From a virus (lineage: Duplodnaviria; Heunggongvirae; Uroviricota; Caudoviricetes), in the IMG/VR virus record IMGVR_UViG_2541047934_000011: a stretch of DNA of 7,686 nucleotides, one strand, 5' to 3'. Below are positions 1,321-7,686 of the stretch, piece after piece. A program made the translations under genes and the position numbers. Numbering within the stretch: position 1 is the stretch's first letter; every line of letters begins with the position of its first letter. The notes under the pieces were generated by a model. That model worked only from the letters and a program-made list of their open reading frames with translations, searched no databases and had not been told where the DNA came from.

Positions 1321-1544
1321 GGGCAAATCCATTAACACATAAGCAATCAGTATGATTGGTTAGGTGATTACTCTTACTGCGCACAGCGCAATAGATTTCT
1401 TCGTGGGCGTTACCGCCAACGAAGTTACACGAAGAAAGTAACGCTTTGCTTTCGGTGTGAGCGGAACGGGCCAGCCACGAAGCCCGAAAGGTAGCGGAGT
1501 AAGGCTGCTTGCCAGAGAGTGAAGCTAACGCCGGAAGGCAAAAG

Positions 1545-1625
1545 ATCATATATATAGATATAAAGAATATTATTATTATGATCTAATTAATAATCTAATA
1601 TAGTTTTATTAATAGTCTTATTGTA
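1545..1625. other. Near-pure A/T tract (DNA-unwinding-element-like), bracketed by the 8-bp inverted repeat AGATCATA / TATGATCT
   Basis: About 80 bp of almost exclusively A/T immediately after a GC-richer segment (1340..1545). Inverted repeat AGATCATA at about 1543..1550 and TATGATCT at about 1578..1585. No coding potential. Confidence 0.5.
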
Positions 1626-1628
1626 GTT

Positions 1629-1664
1629 CACAGTGACCTACCCCCTAGCTCACTATGACCTACC
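1629..1664 (+). repeat. Two direct copies of CAC(A/T)(G/A)TGACCTACC spaced 22 bp
   Basis: cacagtgacctacc at 1629..1642 and cactatgacctacc at 1651..1664 (12 of 14 identical). Confidence 0.8.
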
Positions 1665-1694
1665 GTTACTACCAATCATCACATAGCACTCACT

Positions 1695-2474
1695 CTGTGT
1701 AATGCCTTTCTATGTGTGTGCCATAATCCCCTATATTCCCTGTGTAAATCATAGAATATCCCTAACTTATTCCTGTGTAATTCCATACTAAAAATTCAAT
1801 GAAAAGTAGCTTAAAAGTGCAATTCTTACTTTCTTCACTTTTACATCACTTTCGCAAATCCTTGTGTAGTGCGGCCTACAGAGCACCATCAGAAATTGTT
1901 GGCTAAAAATTGTTCTGCTTGTTTCTTAACGAGTTTTCTCGTTTGTGCAAATTTTAAAATTTATTTTGTTTTTACAGCCTTATTTCGTGTAATGCGTGGC
2001 ATAGCAAGCCCTTTTCTTGTGTTGTCAAGACATTTGGCAACGTTCAAACATCTGTTTAGAAATGCCAAATTGTTGATCTAACAAATAAACCTGTATAAAC
2101 AGAACACCATTTAATCTATTCCCCTGTGTAATCCACTACATCACACAATAAAAACAAAAAAACCTTTAATTATGTTTCATAGCATACAAAAGTCAACAGA
2201 AGCCCTCTCGTGCTCCTACGTAAAAAATCCATCATTTTCCCCTGATACATCAACTCAAGGCGTTCTATGTGTTCCTTAGTGCATATTACGTTTATTATGT
2301 TAAATTGATTTTGGCCTATATTTTGACCTGCACCCGCATAAACACTGGTTTCATCGCTTACAGTCCTTGTGAGACGTGGTGCTGTTTCTAGCATCTGATC
2401 CGACATAAAACCGATCATTCTCGTGTTTAGTGAAAGTTTAGTGAGAGACATTACAGAAAGGCTTTCTGTGTAAT
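1695..2474 (+). repeat. Dispersed same-orientation motif CTGTGTAAT (5 exact copies plus close variants) in AT-rich non-coding DNA
   Basis: Exact CTGTGTAAT at 1695..1703, 1773..1781, 2124..2132 and 2466..2474, and CTGTGTAAA at 1740..1748. Variants TCGTGTAAT at 1985..1993, TATGTGTGTG at about 1711..1720 and TTGTGTAGT at about 1862..1870. All are on the + strand. A 9-mer recurring this often in under 1 kb is far above chance. Confidence 0.85.
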
Positions 2475-2610
2475 GATTTAATAGGTAAAAACGATGTTGA
2501 TTACGCAAGAAAATTCCTTGCTGATATTTGGGGATTCTGGATTTTCCAGATCGGGGGGCGCTGAAAATCGCGTTAAGCACCTCTCGCAATCTAGCCATAA
2601 GGGAAGGGAT

Positions 2611-2675
2611 ATAGGTATTTAGATGTATTTATAGCTATTTATGGCTATTTATTTTTTATTTACCTTTATTTAAAA
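2611..2675. other. Phased T-tracts with 10-bp periodicity (intrinsically curved DNA)
   Basis: ataggTATTT agatgTATTT atagcTATTT atggcTATTT attttTTATT taccTTTATT: TATTT recurs every 10 bp, i.e. helically phased A/T tracts, a signature of bent DNA at promoters or origins and of H-NS-bound DNA. Confidence 0.7.
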
Positions 2676-2741
2676 ATAACCTTATAAATCAATAAGATAC
2701 ACAACTATCTGTTTATATTTTAATCAATTAAATCAAGTTTA

Positions 2742-2780
2742 ATACCCTTAAATCACCTGAAAATACCCTTAAATACCCCA
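2742..2780 (+). repeat. Direct repeats ATACCCTTAAAT with 21-bp spacing, plus a third partial copy ATACCCCA (iteron-like)
   Basis: ATACCCTTAAAT at 2742..2753 and 2763..2774 (exact, 21 bp apart), then ATACCCCA at 2773..2780. Confidence 0.8.
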
Positions 2781-2942
2781 ATAATTAATTTTAAGGTTTT
2801 CCGTGTTCTCTTCTGCATTATGAAAATGCAAAATAAGGCACAAAACAAGCGCACAGACGCATTAAACACACATCACCTATACATCCCTATACCAAGCAAT
2901 GAAAATAGCGTTAGAATGCGTCCTGTTGCGTTCTGGAGATTT

Positions 2943-3101
2943 TCAGAAATCCTCTCTAAGCCATTTCAACTCATTAAGGAGTTTTCTTTCTTCGTTCTCT
3001 CTCTGTTTACGCTCTAGCCAGGCTTTTCCTTCTGGCGTAGACAGGAACTTACGAGCGTGAATCTTGCGGTTATTACGTTTGATAGCTGCAATGTTTTTCA
3101 T
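2943..3101 (-). CDS. Small basic hypothetical protein, 52 aa (not in the supplied ORF track)
   Basis: Minus-strand ATG at 3101..3099 preceded by AGAGG with 6-nt spacing (...atacAGAGGcacacgATG). Translation MKNIAAIKRNNRKIHARKFLSTPEGKAWLERKQRENEERKLLNELKWLREDF, stop TGA at 2945..2943. Lys/Arg-rich, no hydrophobic segment. It overlaps the +-strand ORF 2820..3017, which has no RBS. Confidence 0.4.
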   Translation of the reverse strand: MKNIAAIKRNNRKIHARKFLSTPEGKAWLERKQRENEERKLLNELKWLREDF

Positions 3102-3923
3102 CGTGTGCCTCTGTATTCATATGAAAATTAACAAGTTACATACTACACAGGGAGACTACGCATAAAACACAATACAAGTAAAGATACATTTTCAAGACAA
3201 TAGGAGCCATAAAGCGCCTTTGATGGGCTACCCCAAAAAATAAGCGCCGTAGGCGTATCCACTAAAAGGGCTTTTTCACAAAAGCTATGAAGTCTTAGCA
3301 GTTCTTCTCTTATCAGGCACCCGTTGTACTCCGGTGGACGAAACCGTGCTAGAGCTTGATTCTTTCCCGATCAAGTTAGGTTTTGAAGAGGTGGGCTTTG
3401 ATCCACTATTGCACTTAAAACTCTTCCCATCATTTAGCCTGTTTATCCTCTGCAACGTCTCACGACGTGTAGCATCATTGGACACCGCGCCAGGTGTGGA
3501 ACATCTTGCTAAGAGTTTTGGTAGAAGGTTTAGAGACGGTGGCACGTCTTCCAGCTTCAAAGGAACTTGTTACGAGGTTGAGCCTGGGAACTACTCGCCC
3601 ATACGTGTTACACTACCAAAGCCCATAACAACGTATAGGCGTTTGTAAGTGATAACAGAAGATACAATTTCTTAGAGAAGTTAAGCTAAGTTATTGATTT
3701 TCTTGATTGTGCGATAATAGGAACAATACACATAGGCGATAAGCTTTGTTTTTGTTGCCTTTTTTATTGTTCATTTTTTATAGATACCCCCAAAAGTACC
3801 CCCATATCTTTTTCCGCCCCTGAAATTTGGTTGTTATTCATACAGCATATCAGGCGGTAACGCTCTCCCTTTAACCCACTTATTGTATGATAGTGCTATC
3901 CCACAATAAGGAATCAGCCAGCC

Positions 3924-4283
3924 ATGAGAATGACCAGCCGCAAAAAAGAGATACTTAGCTACTTTGAACCGGATAACCTCGAATGGGTGACTGGTGAGAT
4001 TGGTGCGCCGCCGTTCGATGTGTCGGGTGTGGCCTACCTGCTTCATGGCATGGTGTCGTTCGATAAGCGTCACCAGCTCGAATCAACCCGGCGCACACTG
4101 GAAAGCATGGTTGCTGGTGGACTGCTTGAGCGGGTGACAGTGTATGAATCGCGCCAGATACGGCGCGGCGGTGATACTAACGCAACGGTCGTGCGCTACG
4201 GTTTACCCGGTCAGTGCGCTGTTATGCGCGATACTGGCGGCGCTGACAACGCAATATCAGGTGAATACATGCGGGTCAGTTAA
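3924..4283 (+). CDS. Hypothetical protein, 119 aa (possible small winged-helix-like DNA-binding protein)
   Basis: ATG at 3924 with AAGGA about 11 nt upstream. GC-richer, E. coli-like codon usage. Translation MRMTSRKKEILSYFEPDNLEWVTGEIG... is not recognised as a known family. The 3' end overlaps the convergent pRiA4b-ORF3-like gene by 8 bp. Confidence 0.5.
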   Translation: MRMTSRKKEILSYFEPDNLEWVTGEIGAPPFDVSGVAYLLHGMVSFDKRHQLESTRRTLESMVAGGLLERVTVYESRQIRRGGDTNATVVRYGLPGQCAVMRDTGGADNAISGEYMRVS

Positions 4284-4818
4284 TAGCCTGCAATCTGTCG
4301 TTGATGCGGCTCAGGTCGTAAACCCGGCGTTCAATATCCAGCATCAGGAAATTGTGGATCTCGGCCTGCTCAGGATTATCAGACTCTCTGGCCTGTAATA
4401 GCAATTCATTGTAACCATGCAAGCCGCCTGAGTTTTCCGCCGGGGTGGTGCCTTTCCCACGCAGGCAGCTAATGGGCTGATTACTCGTATCGTGTGTTTG
4501 CTTCTCCAGCACAATGACGCAATCCCACCAGTCGCCAAAGTCATACGTGTAAACCAGCTTGTCACCCTCATTCTGGAGCGCCGCCCATAGTGGCGTGATT
4601 GCCGCGTTACCCATGCTTTCATCCTCACCCCATACGCGATACTCGCTACCTGGATCACCTTTACGCCCTTTCTCGAACATATACAGGTGTTCGTCATTCC
4701 AGCCAAAAGCTAACTGGATCACGGCATGAAGTTTACTAAAGGGGATTTGCTCTGGAACCAGCACACGCCGCCATATAGGTGGTTTGCTGTCTCGGATGGT
4801 TATCTTTAGCTGGTACAT
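4276..4818 (-). CDS. Plasmid pRiA4b ORF-3-like family protein (Pfam PRiA4_ORF3 / MM3350-like domain), 180 aa, function unknown
   Basis: N-terminus MYQLKITIRDSKPPIWRRVLVPEQIPFSKLHAVIQLAFGWNDEHLYMF carries the signature of the pRiA4b ORF-3-like family (Y.LK.TL.D..PPIWRR..VP...F..LH..IQ...GW...HL..F). ATG at 4818, weak SD (AGGA 8 nt upstream). Confidence 0.8.
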   Translation of the reverse strand: MYQLKITIRDSKPPIWRRVLVPEQIPFSKLHAVIQLAFGWNDEHLYMFEKGRKGDPGSEYRVWGEDESMGNAAITPLWAALQNEGDKLVYTYDFGDWWDCVIVLEKQTHDTSNQPISCLRGKGTTPAENSGGLHGYNELLLQARESDNPEQAEIHNFLMLDIERRVYDLSRINDRLQAIN

Positions 4819-4938
4819 GCAAATCCTGAATAAATGCGAATCGGAAGGATAACGATACTGACGTACTCACAATTCTGTAAAGGTGAATAAAGGAAATTTG
4901 CTTAATACGCATAAGTTACATGTGGAATAATCCCATAT

Positions 4939-5124
4939 CTACCTGCGCGGCGCTGGCTTCTTCCACTGGTAGGCAGGTGCTCGCATCATTTCGCGGAACC
5001 TGTCGCGCCGGGCTATATCGGCATTAACTGATCGTTCTATCTCCCGTTGATCTGCCTGTGTAAGCTGGTGGCCTCCGTGCTCAAGTTTGGCGATGGTCAA
5101 TAAGGCTATTTCGCGTGGTGTCAT
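4939..5124 (-). CDS. Small hypothetical protein, 61 aa
   Basis: ATG at 5124..5122 preceded by GAGGG at 8-nt spacing (ccaGAGGGtatgacgtATG). Translation MTPREIALLTIAKLEHGGHQLTQADQREIERSVNADIARRDRFREMMRAPAYQWKKPAPRR. Co-oriented between the PerC-like and pRiA4b-like genes. Confidence 0.45.
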   Translation of the reverse strand: MTPREIALLTIAKLEHGGHQLTQADQREIERSVNADIARRDRFREMMRAPAYQWKKPAPRR

Positions 5125-5350
5125 ACGTCATACCCTCTGGAAGAATGAAACACGCCCGGATTAAATTTCATTTTTCGCGGGTATAAAAAAACGATGGGGC
5201 GGGCAGTCCCGGATAGTCAGGGCTGTAGAGATTTGACTACCCCCTCCCCACTGGATTCAGGTTACTGCTATTCCGTTAAGCGCTGCTTACGGGGATAGCT
5301 GCGTTGTGATTTTGACCATTCAGGTCGCCGCTATTTCCTCACCGATTGGG

Positions 5351-5373
5351 TGCTACGCGCGCGCGTACTTGTC
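5351..5373 (+). repeat. Repeat family copy a: TGCTA(CG)5TACTTGTC, containing the 14-bp palindrome TACGCGCGCGCGTA
   Basis: tgctacgcgcgcgcgtacttgtc, followed by CCGAAATACCAG. Near-identical to copy b at 6761..6781 apart from one extra CG unit. Lies in the intergenic region downstream of the PerC-like gene. Confidence 0.85.
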
Positions 5374-5395
5374 CCGAAATACCAGAAACCGCCAG

Positions 5396-5417
5396 CCAGA
5401 GGATGATTTCCCTCTGG
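5396..5417 (-). terminator. Candidate intrinsic terminator hairpin downstream of the PerC-like gene
   Basis: On the minus strand: CCAGAGG-gaaatcat-CCTCTGG (7-bp stem, 8-nt loop) starting 5 nt after the stop (5424..5422), followed by a moderately T-rich tail (ctggcggTTTcTggTaTTTcgg). Not a canonical U-run, so weak. Confidence 0.3.
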
Positions 5418-5421
5418 TGGT

Positions 5422-5703
5422 CTACCTTTGCCTCTTGCCGCCATTTAACCGGAAGGCGTTACCGTTCGGTTGCGCTATCCCCATGCGGTGTTGCGTTTCG
5501 GTAACAGCTTTATGCAGGTCGCCAAATTCCTCAACCTTCACGGGCGGGCGCTTCACGTTCTCCAGACACGTTTCACGGCGGCGCTTTATCCATTCCCGAT
5601 CATCGTCCTCGGTGCATAACAGCATGACTTCCATCCATCGTGCGGCAGCTCTCCGGTATAGCCCTTTTGACTCCAGCTCTTCAGCTTTCCTGTCCCTTAT
5701 CAT
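5422..5703 (-). CDS. PerC-family (Pch-like) transcriptional regulator, 93 aa
   Basis: ATG at 5703..5701 with strong SD GAGAGG (5714..5709). Translation MIRDRKAEELESKGLYRRAAARWMEVM...REWIKRRRETCLE... carries the conserved PerC-family core (AE.LE.KGL.RRAA.RW..VM) recalled from EPEC PerC and EHEC Pch proteins. Confidence 0.75.
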   Translation of the reverse strand: MIRDRKAEELESKGLYRRAAARWMEVMLLCTEDDDREWIKRRRETCLENVKRPPVKVEEFGDLHKAVTETQHRMGIAQPNGNAFRLNGGKRQR

Positions 5704-5708
5704 TTCTG

Positions 5709-5722
5709 CCTCTCAGATTATA
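5709..5722 (-). promoter_or_regulatory. Candidate sigma70 -10 element (TATAAT) and SD for the PerC-like gene, abutting the tandem repeat array
   Basis: Minus-strand reading: ...tgaaccaacacctttttgcttatctaTATAATctGAGAGGcagaaATG. Perfect TATAAT at 5722..5717, and the position of a -35 would fall on the first repeat unit. The leader would be very short. Confidence 0.4.
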
Positions 5723-5739
5723 TAGATAAGCAAAAAGGT

Positions 5740-5784
5740 GTTGGTTCAGTTGGTTCAGTTGGTTCAGTTGGTTCAGTTGGTTCA
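5740..5784 (+). repeat. Five perfect head-to-tail copies of the 9-bp unit GTTGGTTCA (iteron- or operator-like array)
   Basis: Exact tandem units at 5740..5748, 5749..5757, 5758..5766, 5767..5775 and 5776..5784, followed by a 43-bp AT-rich spacer. Confidence 0.95.
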
Positions 5785-5827
5785 ATTTGTAAAGATTGTT
5801 GTTTTTATTGTGTTTTTTCTGAAATAT

Positions 5828-5878
5828 TGAACCAACATCAACTCATTTTGAACCAACACAGCCCAGCTCTGAACCAAC
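5828..5878 (-). repeat. Three inverted-orientation copies of the same unit (TGAACCAAC on the + strand) phased exactly 21 bp apart
   Basis: TGAACCAACA at 5828, 5849 and 5870. Each begins a 21-bp unit (tgaaccaacatcaactcattt / tgaaccaacacagcccagctc / tgaaccaacaacacagcgata), so copies sit two helical turns apart on the same DNA face. Confidence 0.95.
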
Positions 5879-5931
5879 AACACAGCGATAGATTTGTGAT
5901 TGGTCCGTTATTTTCTGGCTGATATTTGAGC

Positions 5932-5948
5932 GTATAACAGTGTTATAC
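5932..5948. promoter_or_regulatory. 17-bp palindrome GTATAACA-g-TGTTATAC (operator-like) overlapping a candidate extended -10 upstream of the RHH gene
   Basis: Perfect inverted 8-bp arms around a central G, followed by GTATAC at 5954..5959. TGTTATAC resembles an extended -10 (TGnTATAc). Located 33 to 49 bp upstream of the ATG at 5981. Confidence 0.4.
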
Positions 5949-5980
5949 AGTGGTATACTGTATGGATATTACTCACTGAT

Positions 5981-6436
5981 ATGGTCTTTGCAATGAGCAA
6001 ATCTAATCTGGTCGCGTTCCGCATCCCATCTGAATTGCAGGATGAGTTTAATCGGTCTGTTCTCGCTTCTGGAGGAGATAAAACCTCCTGGCTTGTTGAT
6101 GCGATTCGCATGAAGCTGGGGCAGCCGGAAAAGTCTATTGATTCACGAATGCTTGGGCTGGTGGAGCGCATGGAAAAAGCCGCTGCGTCGCTTATTGCCG
6201 GAAAGCCGAACATCCCACCAAAACCATATAACGAAACGGCAGTTATAAAGATCATTGCCGATACCATCCAACAGGGATTTGATAATGGGCGTGTGATAGC
6301 TGAACGGATCAATGAAGCAGGCTATCAAACAAAAGCTGGTAAAGCGTGGGATAAAGATATTTACAGCGCGTGGAAGCGTCAGGGAAGCAATGCTGAAAAG
6401 CTAAAAGCAGTGATTGATTGTAAGGTCAGCGTATAA
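5981..6436 (+). CDS. Ribbon-helix-helix (Arc/MetJ/CopG-like) DNA-binding protein with a C-terminal extension of about 100 aa, 151 aa (147 aa if the ATG at 5993 is used)
   Basis: From the second ATG: MSKSNLVAFRIPSELQDEFNRSVLASGGDKTSWLVDAIRMKLG fits the RHH pattern (beta-strand with alternating hydrophobics and R.P.EL, helix A, G.[ST] N-cap turn, helix B). Neither ATG has an obvious SD, so the start is uncertain. Stop TAA at 6434..6436. Confidence 0.6.
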   Translation: MVFAMSKSNLVAFRIPSELQDEFNRSVLASGGDKTSWLVDAIRMKLGQPEKSIDSRMLGLVERMEKAAASLIAGKPNIPPKPYNETAVIKIIADTIQQGFDNGRVIAERINEAGYQTKAGKAWDKDIYSAWKRQGSNAEKLKAVIDCKVSV

Positions 6437-6515
6437 ACATGAGTGCCCATTGGAAAGTTGCTTGGGCCAATACCTTTATACACCAGCAGGTAGTGACGAT
6501 AGGTGAGGATCAGAT

Positions 6516-6737
6516 ATGAAAGGCAGAACGCCACACATTGAACATCAAGCCAACCACTTCCCTGATGTTCGCAATGAGATGATTGCCATTCGCGGTGATA
6601 TGCACGGATTGGAGCGTCGAATTATTGATAAGATTGATGAAAATAGAGATAAGGCCAGTGAAAATCAAAAGTGGATCATCGGCCTGTTGATTTTATCAAT
6701 TCTTATCCCGCTACTTATCGCATTGGTCACAAAATGA
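6516..6737 (+). CDS. XhlA-like (hemolysin XhlA family) small tail-anchored membrane protein, 73 aa
   Basis: Strong SD GGTGAGGA (6502..6509) 6 nt before the ATG. Predicted coiled-coil N-terminus and a single C-terminal hydrophobic helix (WIIGLLILSILIPLLIALV). The ENQKW motif just before the transmembrane segment recalls the XhlA family of phage lysis-associated proteins. Confidence 0.6.
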   Translation: MKGRTPHIEHQANHFPDVRNEMIAIRGDMHGLERRIIDKIDENRDKASENQKWIIGLLILSILIPLLIALVTK

Positions 6738-6760
6738 ATATCCAATGTGTATGCTGTCGA

Positions 6761-6781
6761 TGCTACGCGCGCGTACTTGTC
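6761..6781 (+). repeat. Repeat family copy b: TGCTA(CG)4TACTTGTC, containing the 12-bp palindrome TACGCGCGCGTA
   Basis: tgctacgcgcgcgtacttgtc, followed by GCAAAATATCAG. Matches copy a over about 35 bp with one fewer CG unit and a few substitutions. Lies 24 bp downstream of the XhlA-like stop. Confidence 0.85.
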
Positions 6782-6998
6782 GCAAAATATCAGGCAAAGG
6801 CCAGATTCAGAAAGTCGTGATAACCACCAGCACAACATGAGAGGTCATGTAACGCGATTTATCACACCAGATACATGTGATTGGTGTACCCGCATAAAAC
6901 ATCGTCATAGCGCGTCCTGTGCGCATATACGCCGATAATCAACACATCACCACCACTCTGTCTCATGTAGAGAACAGTTTTATGGTATCCCCCGCCAT

Positions 6999-7148
6999 CG
7001 TGTGCGTACTGGTCGGACGCAGTTGCAAAAAATTTTGCAACTGATACCCCTCGCGCGCGTACTGGTCACGAAATTGGTGTTTTGCTGTGGCAGTGATATC
7101 AGAAAAATCTTCCTGTTTCACATAAAGCGGATATGCGCGTACTGTAAC
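6999..7148 (+). promoter_or_regulatory. Repeat and palindrome cluster upstream of the 7259 gene: three more family copies plus an operator-like palindrome
   Basis: GTGTGCGTACTGGTC at 6999..7013; palindrome AGTTGCAAAA-aa-TTTTGCAACT at 7021..7042; TCGCGCGCGTACTGGTCACGAAAT at 7051..7074; TGCGCGTACTGTAAC at 7134..7148. All repeat copies are in the same orientation. Confidence 0.6.
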
Positions 7149-7258
7149 GGCCCCATCAACTGGGAGCGGACTTGAAATCCCGACCCAAGCTATGTACCAA
7201 ATGCCATGTCTTGGATATATGATGATTGCCATTCTAAACAACGCTAAAGGGGGTTGGT

Positions 7259-7537
7259 GTGAGCAGAAAAGATACTAAAGAATTGCTAACTATCTGCATG
7301 GTGTACTTTTCAATTTATTTTTGTGCATACATGATAGTCCCAGATGAGTTTGAACATGGCAGTATTATTTATTCCATAACATTCTATTTTTTAGAGCTAA
7401 CACCAATTTTGGCTATCCTTTTGGGAATACATATTTATTTTTCCTTAAAAAAAGAATCGACTAATTGGGAGAAGGTATGGAGAGACAGAGGATTTCTAAG
7501 GAAGGTGCGAATAAGCGGGGAAATTCTTCTCGGCTGA
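7259..7537 (+). pseudogene. Small AT-rich two-transmembrane-helix membrane protein gene interrupted by IS5 (native part 7259..7499, about 80 codons; the last 12 codons and the stop are IS5-encoded)
   Basis: GTG start at 7259 with SD AGGGGG 5 nt upstream. Two hydrophobic helices (LLTICMVYFSIYFCAYMIV and IIYSITFYFLELTPILAILLGIHIYFSL) then a charged tail. The reading frame runs across the IS5 junction at 7500, so the C-terminus ...RKVRISGEILLG is read from the IS5 terminal repeat. The original 3' end is unknown. Confidence 0.5.
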
Positions 7538-7686
7538 CTCAGTCATTTCATTTCTTCATGTTTGAGCCGATTTTTTCTCCCGTAAATGCCTTGAATCAGC
7601 CTATTTAGACCGTTTCTTCGCCATTTAAGGCGTTATCCCCAGTTTTTAGTGAGATCTCTCCCACTGACGTATCATTTGGTCCACCC
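7500..7686 (-). mobile_element. IS5, partial (first 187 bp of the element; the window ends inside it)
   Basis: GGAAGGTGCGAATAAGCGGGGAAATTCTTCTCGGCTGACTCAGTCATTTC... from 7500 matches the IS5 terminal inverted repeat and adjacent sequence as recalled. It is preceded by CTAA (7496..7499), which fits the known IS5 target preference C(T/A)A(G/A). The transposase is on the minus strand. Confidence 0.88.
7646..7686 (-). CDS. insH: IS5 transposase InsH, C-terminal fragment (5'-truncated by the window end)
   Basis: Minus-strand translation of 7684..7649 gives VDQMIRQWERSH followed by stop TAA (7648..7646). This matches the recalled InsH C-terminus ...ADQMIRQWERSH, with one A-to-V difference. Confidence 0.7.
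   Translation of the reverse strand, partial: VDQMIRQWERSH

Follow-up and report, generated by a model that had tools for sequence, protein, structure and literature searches.

Do the four genes at positions 3924-5703 of the virus record IMGVR_UViG_2541047934_000011 (Caudoviricetes) form a single functional module, or are they separate genes of a mobile element? The whole stretch of DNA that was analysed, referred to here as the window, comprises 7,686 nucleotides (nt). A first-pass annotation had described the region as a candidate accessory module in which a PerC-like regulator, a 61-amino-acid (aa) open reading frame (ORF) and a pRiA4b ORF-3-like protein are encoded convergently with a 119-aa hypothetical protein. 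The present analysis argued for another explanation which, taken as a whole and with function included, we regard as probable: the region is the attR-side end of an island integrated at thrW, the genes encoding p119, p61 and PerC belong to the backbone of that island, and the pRiA4b gene is a single-gene cargo.

The four ORFs were recovered exactly where they had been placed. These were p119 (3924-4283, plus strand, 119 aa), the pRiA4b ORF-3 or MM3350-fold protein (4276-4818, minus strand, 180 aa; acidic, with an isoelectric point (pI) of 5.1 and a net charge of -8), p61 (4939-5124, minus strand, 61 aa; small, basic, pI 10.8 and convergent with p119) and the PerC-family regulator (5422-5703, minus strand, 93 aa; also small and basic). 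All four are real genes under purifying selection, with median dN/dS values, measured against orthologues from other genera, of 0.12 for p119, 0.11 for pRiA4b, 0.29 for p61 and 0.17 for PerC. The convergent p119 and pRiA4b genes overlap by 8 bp at their 3' ends, and the remaining genes are separated, as previously given, by 120 bp (4819-4938) and 297 bp (5125-5421). Shine-Dalgarno-like motifs (AAGGA, AGGA, AGAGGG and GAGAGG) preceded all four start codons, in keeping with the ribosome-binding sites (RBS) that had been recognised earlier. The block was also GC-richer than its surroundings, as described, with a GC fraction of 0.52-0.56 over most of 3900-5700 and of 0.30-0.43 in the AT-rich flanks; within it the value dropped to 0.43-0.47 at 4650-5100.

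Both family assignments were upheld. The pRiA4b protein matched PF07929 (PRiA4_ORF3; E = 1.1e-42, 146.2 bits against a cut-off of 26.6, residues 2-170 aligned to profile positions 3-167 of 173) and the regulator matched PF06069 (E = 3.7e-30, 104.5 bits against a cut-off of 22.6, residues 1-85 aligned to profile positions 1-85 of 90). The 119-aa and 61-aa proteins, which had been called unrecognised, indeed matched no Pfam and no NCBIfam family. No Rfam families and no tRNA genes were found in the window.

A facultative insert at the p119/p61 junction

Loci that carry p119 were compared across 27 species, and homologues of every protein encoded in the window were located in them. The pRiA4b gene was absent from about half of these loci. 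Alignment against four empty sites (L013, L022, L024 and L028) resolved the difference as a 655-bp indel with precise stop-to-stop boundaries. The facultative insert (4284-4938, minus strand, approximately 655 bp) consists of the pRiA4b ORF and 120 bp of AT-rich upstream DNA, and it lies exactly between the p119 and p61 stop codons. At the empty junctions of Shimwellia (in which p119 was 92% identical), Yersinia similis, Pseudomonas lundensis and Symbiopectobacterium, the two stop codons were 6-30 bp apart.

In other loci the same junction held different genes. Its occupants were a homologue of p151, the protein encoded divergently from PerC in the window; a PanA (Panacea) antitoxin paired with a 143-aa protein; a Mutator-family transposase; an M78 peptidase of the ImmA/IrrE type, which is CapP-like in PADLOC and is accompanied by a membrane protein; a tyrosine integrase; a DUF2280 protein; and a CHAD protein. 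The p119/p61 junction acts as a cargo slot in which pRiA4b, flanked by the convergent p119 and p61 stop codons, is a moron-type cargo: facultative, self-contained and limited to a single gene. Where pRiA4b was found between p119 and p61 the geometry was constant, and this arrangement was confined to the close clade and to one lineage at 71%. The gene was also found away from the slot; in Serratia (L037) a 77%-identical pRiA4b gene was located next to a Phd/Doc pair, with neither p119 nor p61 nearby.

One further explanation for variation at the slot was considered and rejected. In the metagenomic contig L038 the flanks were 95% identical and the pRiA4b protein was 61% identical, as would be seen after allele replacement at a fixed slot; DNA identity across the gene was 93-95%. 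The called protein (6001-6540 of that contig) was only 61% identical because of compensating frameshifting indels. This copy is a trap for protein-level comparisons.

The three remaining genes, which encode p119, p61 and PerC, belong to the backbone of the element family and assort semi-independently. The distance from PerC to p61 ranged from 137 bp to 6.2 kb, with unrelated genes between, or PerC was not found in the stretch that was fetched. In Escherichia coli 03_3013 (L035) a 53%-identical PerC gene was present together with p151, and p119, pRiA4b and p61 were absent.

The insert resembles the morons of lambdoid and other prophages, which are autonomous single-gene units between backbone genes. 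Like them, it comprises a single ORF preceded by promoter-like DNA of its own, its presence or absence is delimited exactly by a conserved backbone gene on either side, and it is dispensable for the core functions of the element. It differs from them in that no clear terminator of its own was found, its 3' end running into p119, and in that it does not stand out from the flanking genes in GC content.

A second comparison concerns the variable accessory and defence hotspots that Rousset and colleagues reportedly described in 2022, in P4-like satellites (at the psu/int slot) and in P2-like phages. The present island family shares with such elements a P4-type integrase and primase and integration at a tRNA gene, and the slot likewise combines a fixed junction with strain-dependent cargo that includes toxin-antitoxin and Abi-type genes. 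In contrast to those hotspots, the slot is flanked by p119 and p61, at the attR-distal end, and not by psu and int, and most of its cargo is no recognised defence system.

The probable end of a chromosomal island at thrW

Positions 3712-5880 are the probable attR-proximal end of a chromosomal, thrW-integrated, prophage-like or satellite-like island of the CP4-6 type, and the island in the window is a decayed remnant that was cut by the insertion sequence (IS) elements IS2 and IS5. Of 5,426 complete E. coli genomes, 381 contained the DNA block 3880-5140; its 411 occurrences were all chromosomal, and none was on a plasmid. The identity of E. coli chromosomes with positions 1500-7500 reached 99.9%; the matching DNA lay between yagU and the thrW side, and the RefSeq context of the window was the island region between thrW/proA and yagU/ykgJ. 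A plasmid context was not borne out, in that no plasmid record covered at least 80% of the query or reached beyond the IS elements. The few records labelled as plasmids were 17-23-kb circles with a phage-type integrase, one of which also carried a tape-measure gene.

The description of the region as IS-bounded cargo was misleading. IS2 (IS3 family, 1-1350) and IS5 (about 7500-7686) are unrelated insertions into the chromosomal island. They do not delimit a composite transposon, since the left and right elements differ and since IS5 is missing from strain SCU-172, which is 99.9% identical and carries IS2. The insertion of IS5 disrupted the 204-aa gene of the island (7259-7537) near position 7500 and left a truncated gene.

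The layout of the island was read from intact relatives. In their left part, thrW is followed by genes for a tyrosine integrase, a helix-turn-helix (HTH) protein, AntA/B, DUF4222, Ash and Icd-like proteins and, after further genes, a TOPRIM-DUF927 (or P4-family) primase. To the right of the primase gene come genes for DUF2824, ejection proteins, the 204-aa protein, p73 or Abi, p151, PerC, p61, pRiA4b and p119. Beyond p119 a second block, with genes for a regulator, a major capsid protein, a baseplate protein and a second integrase, adjoins yagU. The combination by which a P4-type element is recognised, a tyrosine integrase gene beside a tRNA gene together with a primase gene, was present in the intact relatives and absent from the window. 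None of psu, delta, sid and epsilon was annotated in the RefSeq records of the intact relatives, the hypothetical proteins of which were not examined.

The islands of E. coli PRO_A-1534-6M-A_ESBL and 03_3013 mix P4-type genes, namely the integrase at thrW, the primase and the Icd-like, Ash and AntA/B genes, with P22-type ejection genes (DUF2824 and 'phage DNA ejection protein'). This mixture in the E. coli relatives represents either two tandem elements or one unusual satellite-like element.

Short sequence matches point to the outer boundary of the island. An attR-like core remnant (3712-3722) was recognised by blastn-short comparison with the thrW region of an intact E. coli relative, in which its 11 nt, CGATAATAGGA, matched the 3' end of the tRNA-Thr gene thrW; homology with unrelated E. 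coli records stopped at 3722, and the remnant likely marks the outer boundary. A repeat resembling an integrase arm-type site, GATACCCCCAAAAGTACCCCC (3784-3805, 22 nt), was a 95% match to the DNA that separates the integrase gene from thrW in the intact relative, and analogous GGGTACACC repeats were found at an equal distance from p119 in three other loci (L002, L003 and L038). In circular Klebsiella and Raoultella records of 17-23 kb, p119 adjoined the integrase gene across an att-like region, and in L038 p119 was the last gene before housekeeping genes.

The att-like pair was also suggestive of an attR-like end with a second CP4-6-like block to its left.

One part of the original description that held was that this is horizontally acquired accessory DNA, here the mosaic of a chromosomal mobile element. 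As a whole, the region is ordinary mosaic mobile-element DNA with one truly uncharacterised single-gene cargo.

Two other features of the window were recorded to the right of this region. A 73-aa ORF (6516-6737) encodes a C-terminal hydrophobic segment and gave a weak match to SLATT (E = 0.027), a weak match to a holin phrog (E = 0.003) and a solid match to phrog_6324; its position is taken by an Abi-family gene in other strains. Between the 73-aa and 204-aa genes a GC-rich motif, CGCGCGCGTACTKGTC, occurs three times (6762-6788, 6995-7014 and 7048-7074).

Backbone genes and their predicted regulatory signals

The p119 gene is the terminal backbone gene of the element, and its family is centred on the Enterobacterales, in which homologues formed 542 clusters. 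The family is narrow; when 1.84 billion representatives were scanned in full with HMMER, only 91 close relatives were identified. A distant homologue was found in the early operon of Klebsiella phage vB_KpnP_ZX1. The AlphaFold2 model of p119, which had a mean predicted local distance difference test (pLDDT) score of 55, combined helices with a beta-hairpin and weakly suggested a winged-helix-like DNA-binding fold. The candidate assignment of p119 as a recognisable winged-helix or excisionase protein was rejected, given the low pLDDT, a best Foldseek match at E = 0.12, an empty PDB profile search and the small number of close relatives.

Directly upstream of the p119 RBS is a 33-bp near-palindrome (3879-3911, plus strand), CTTATTGTATGATAG-TG-CTATCCCACAATAAGG, which is a putative operator or promoter. 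It is the strongest non-coding signal of the region. The palindrome was retained in all 32 loci of 32, even where p119 protein identity was 62-66%, and homology between loci broke at its left edge, with the DNA further upstream being unrelated. Conservation of this kind suggests that the palindrome is an operator, probably for p119 itself. In the mechanism that we propose, the p119 promoter would be embedded in the conserved palindrome, to which p119 would bind as a repressor of that promoter.

Searches of PHROGs matched p61 to phrog_7271 (E = 2e-6) and PerC to phrog_994 (E = 1e-37). The PerC protein resembles PerC of enteropathogenic E. coli and the Pch proteins of enterohaemorrhagic E. coli in that it has a full-length match to PF06069, is small and basic, and is encoded on a prophage-like element. 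It differs from both in its genomic setting, since a promoter next to an iteron array is not described for perC or pch. Group-1 Pch proteins displace H-NS at LEE1 and thereby relieve the silencing of AT-rich promoters (PMC4764244). By analogy with other PerC and Pch proteins, the small PerC protein of the island may activate AT-rich promoters of horizontally acquired DNA by lifting their silencing by H-NS.

Comparison of PerC with the AraC negative regulator (ANR) family NF033650 gave 31.1 bits, below the cut-off of 32, and involved only the N-terminal 50 residues. This near-threshold score hints at kinship between the PerC and ANR families.

Co-transcription of the genes had been described as not assured and is indeed doubtful, and the predicted promoter-like and terminator-like sites point to separate units. 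A terminator-like structure between PerC and p61 (5185-5249, minus strand) has a G-rich stem, GGGGAGGGGG ... CCCGCCCC, followed by T7, and a second hairpin (about 5392-5420, minus strand) is located just 3' of the PerC stop codon. Both were missed by a simple terminator scan because of the long loop of the larger one, and folding of the 297-nt PerC/p61 gap as RNA gave an overall z-score of -1.85. A sigma-70 promoter-like site (4852-4881, minus strand; TTTACA-18-TATCGT, 9/12 matches) occurs within the insert, where it precedes the pRiA4b start codon by 34 bp. With hairpins between PerC and p61 and a promoter-like site inside the insert, separate transcription units appear the most likely arrangement for the four genes. 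The PerC promoter would abut the iterons, with the terminator-like hairpins behind PerC, and pRiA4b would be read from the promoter-like site within its own insert.

The iteron array that had been reported next to this region is real. It extends over 5740-5879, in the divergent PerC/p151 intergenic promoter region, and contains five tandem copies of the 9-mer GTTGGTTCA (5740-5784) and three inverted copies 21 bp apart (5828, 5849 and 5870). Arrays of the 9-mer occurred in the island family across many genera. In intact E. coli relatives (L033 and L035) a second array was located directly 3' of the TOPRIM-DUF927 primase gene, and a variant island with a different primase was without 9-mer arrays.

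The ori and crr sites of phage P4 consist of short iterons, both direct and inverted, at two separate places, one of which is beside the primase gene. The island family similarly has direct and inverted iterons at two places, one of them beside the primase gene; it differs from P4 in its repeat sequence and its DUF927-type primase, the gene for which is not in the window. By this analogy the iterons are putative ori/crr-like binding sites of the primase-type replication protein of the island and, given this likeness, the PerC and p151 promoters may sit inside a replication-protein binding region.

A contig labelled Chryseobacterium sp. 18061 (L030) carried an enterobacterial-type p119 locus in which the palindrome and 9-mer arrays were present and the p119 gene was disrupted. 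This locus is probably the result of contamination or of recent transfer.

The pRiA4b protein and its possible role

The AlphaFold model of the 180-aa pRiA4b protein had a pLDDT of 90.6 and the same three-dimensional fold as the solved family member MM3350 (PDB 2i1s). In a 53-sequence alignment all of the family-invariant residues were present (PP.WRR, H31, H44, YDFGD.W, C118 and P.E..GG..GY); the invariant polar residues were W16, R17, R18, H31 and H44, and D93, D96, E105, C118 and E128 were nearly invariant, so that conserved polar positions are unusually numerous. The PF07929 proteins are acidic, with a median pI of 4.85. It had been stated that the pRiA4b ORF-3-like domain has no established function, and this statement stands: no functional study of pRiA4b ORF-3, PF07929, MM3350, 2i1s or IS1096 tnpR was found in the literature searched. 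A viral structure library added only unnamed giant-virus proteins as matches.

Two leads to function were rejected. Simple DNA binding, at which a SNAPC3 match and the name 'TnpR' had hinted, was disfavoured because the family is acidic. Fusion partners gave no functional clue, as longer members carried only DUF1841, a SEC-C motif or unannotated regions.

The family recurs on mobile DNA. In Pseudomonas phage Marin a PF07929 gene was located 4 bp after an IS66 transposase gene, as a passenger, and in mycobacteriophage LouisV14 the PF07929 gene is the 'TnpR' gene of IS1096. In addition, PF07929 was listed in a survey as a passenger of ISAzba1-group transposons (PMC3942029). The pRiA4b protein is like MM3350 and the IS1096 'TnpR' protein in that the invariant residues are kept and the gene is carried on mobile DNA (IS1096, IS66 and ISAzba1); unlike the IS1096 passenger, it is encoded in a prophage-island junction and not beside a transposase gene. 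Neighbourhoods were collected from 131 further loci on viral and metagenomic contigs, which were reduced to 73 non-redundant genes. The 126 immediate neighbours belonged to 87 Pfam families, none of which occurred more than twice, and sequence clustering of 217 neighbours revealed no family common to more than three of 68 loci. With no recurring neighbour in these 68-73 non-redundant loci, PF07929 has no dedicated partner gene.

We infer that the pRiA4b protein is no DNA-binding regulator and that its target, on which it acts unaided, is a protein or a small molecule. In the proposed mechanism this acidic protein, which contains a beta-grasp and in which a polar pocket would be strongly conserved, would need no dedicated partner and would benefit the mobile element on which it is encoded; its most plausible targets for binding or modification would be proteins of the host or of a competitor, and not DNA.

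A more specific role for the protein, as a single-gene conflict factor (anti-phage exclusion or anti-defence) in a satellite cargo hotspot comparable to those of P4 and P2, appears rather unlikely. The company that the gene keeps is in its favour, as the slot and its neighbourhood hold PanA toxin-antitoxin, Abi, CapP-like M78 peptidase and HNH plus Dcm genes, and pRiA4b itself is next to Phd/Doc in Serratia. It is also stand-alone and partner-free, acidic as many anti-restriction proteins are, and a recurrent passenger of IS elements and phages. In contrast, the protein had no PADLOC and no PHROGs match, few of the 126 family neighbours were defence-related (one DruA, two WYL and one methylase), most PF07929 members occur in ordinary chromosomal contexts, and the literature searched yielded no experimental data for such a role. 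That the protein represents a new kind of partner-free, single-protein anti-defence or exclusion factor, carried by IS66, IS1096, ISAzba1 and island slots, is unlikely.

The proposal that pRiA4b and p119 are a functional pair, in which a DNA-binding regulator or neutraliser is coupled to an effector by antisense transcription across the overlapping 3' ends, is in our judgement decidedly unlikely. In its favour, the 8-bp overlap was identical in all of the approximately 20 loci that carry this pRiA4b subfamily beside p119, and the block 3880-5140 moves in one piece between Klebsiella, Raoultella and E. coli. However, p119 was found without pRiA4b in at least 15 species-level loci, which include the close relative Shimwellia, and pRiA4b was found without p119 in Serratia and on phage IS elements. 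The family has no recurring partner of any kind, and a stop-to-stop insertion would give a 3' overlap in any case.

The weakest explanation, that PerC, p61, pRiA4b and p119 are one accessory module with a new defence or maintenance function under the control of PerC, is very improbable: although hundreds of E. coli genomes keep all four genes side by side and undamaged, with identities of 98-100%, although a metagenomic contig and members of Enterobacter, Kluyvera and Atlantibacter likewise show the order PerC...p61-pRiA4b-p119, and although neighbouring slots carry Abi, PanA and HNH plus Dcm genes, each gene was found without the others (PerC alone in E. coli L035, pRiA4b alone in Serratia L037), pRiA4b is facultative, PerC lies 0.14-6 kb away with unrelated genes between, and terminator-like structures and a separate promoter-like site are predicted within the set. 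A defence signature was lacking, with no PADLOC-DB family matched by any of the seven proteins at E ≤ 1. Conserved synteny, the absence of which the first-pass annotation had itself named among the grounds for giving the module up, was largely absent from the p119 loci of the 27 species. What remains of its proposal is the presence of a regulator and genes of unknown function on accessory DNA; the IS-bounded module with a new system does not.

Several observations weigh against the reading of the region as an island end in which pRiA4b is an independent cargo. The pRiA4b and p119 proteins diverged to a similar extent in L017 (74% and 71%, respectively), and their association is therefore an old one; the same 3'-overlapping geometry was seen in every enterobacterial locus with this subfamily except Serratia L037. 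A functional link between pRiA4b and p119 is possible, given this old association. The polymorphism itself is compatible either with insertion or with repeated precise loss. The att assignment is drawn from short matches of 11 and 22 nt, so that both sites are candidates. The promoter and terminator calls are consensus and fold predictions that are no commoner than in shuffled sequence. DNA binding by p119 is suggested only by the pLDDT-55 model and the palindrome, and the pI of the protein is near neutral. Finally, Pch proteins of groups 2 and 3 (PchD and PchE) are unlike those of group 1, having other targets and not activating LEE (PMC6265319).

Placing these genes at the end of a thrW prophage-like island removes a false lead, namely that of a plasmid-borne module of regulator and effectors. 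The p119/p61 junction, the p119 palindrome and the 9-bp iterons are landmarks by which the island family and its cargo can be delimited in other Enterobacterales. The PF07929 family is widespread and has a solved structure, and here one of its members is an isolated, purifying-selected, single-gene cargo in a tractable host, so that a clean knock-out and over-expression test is possible. If the protein is a single-protein conflict factor, the E. coli copy, found in 7% of the complete genomes, would offer a tractable way to study the function of PF07929.

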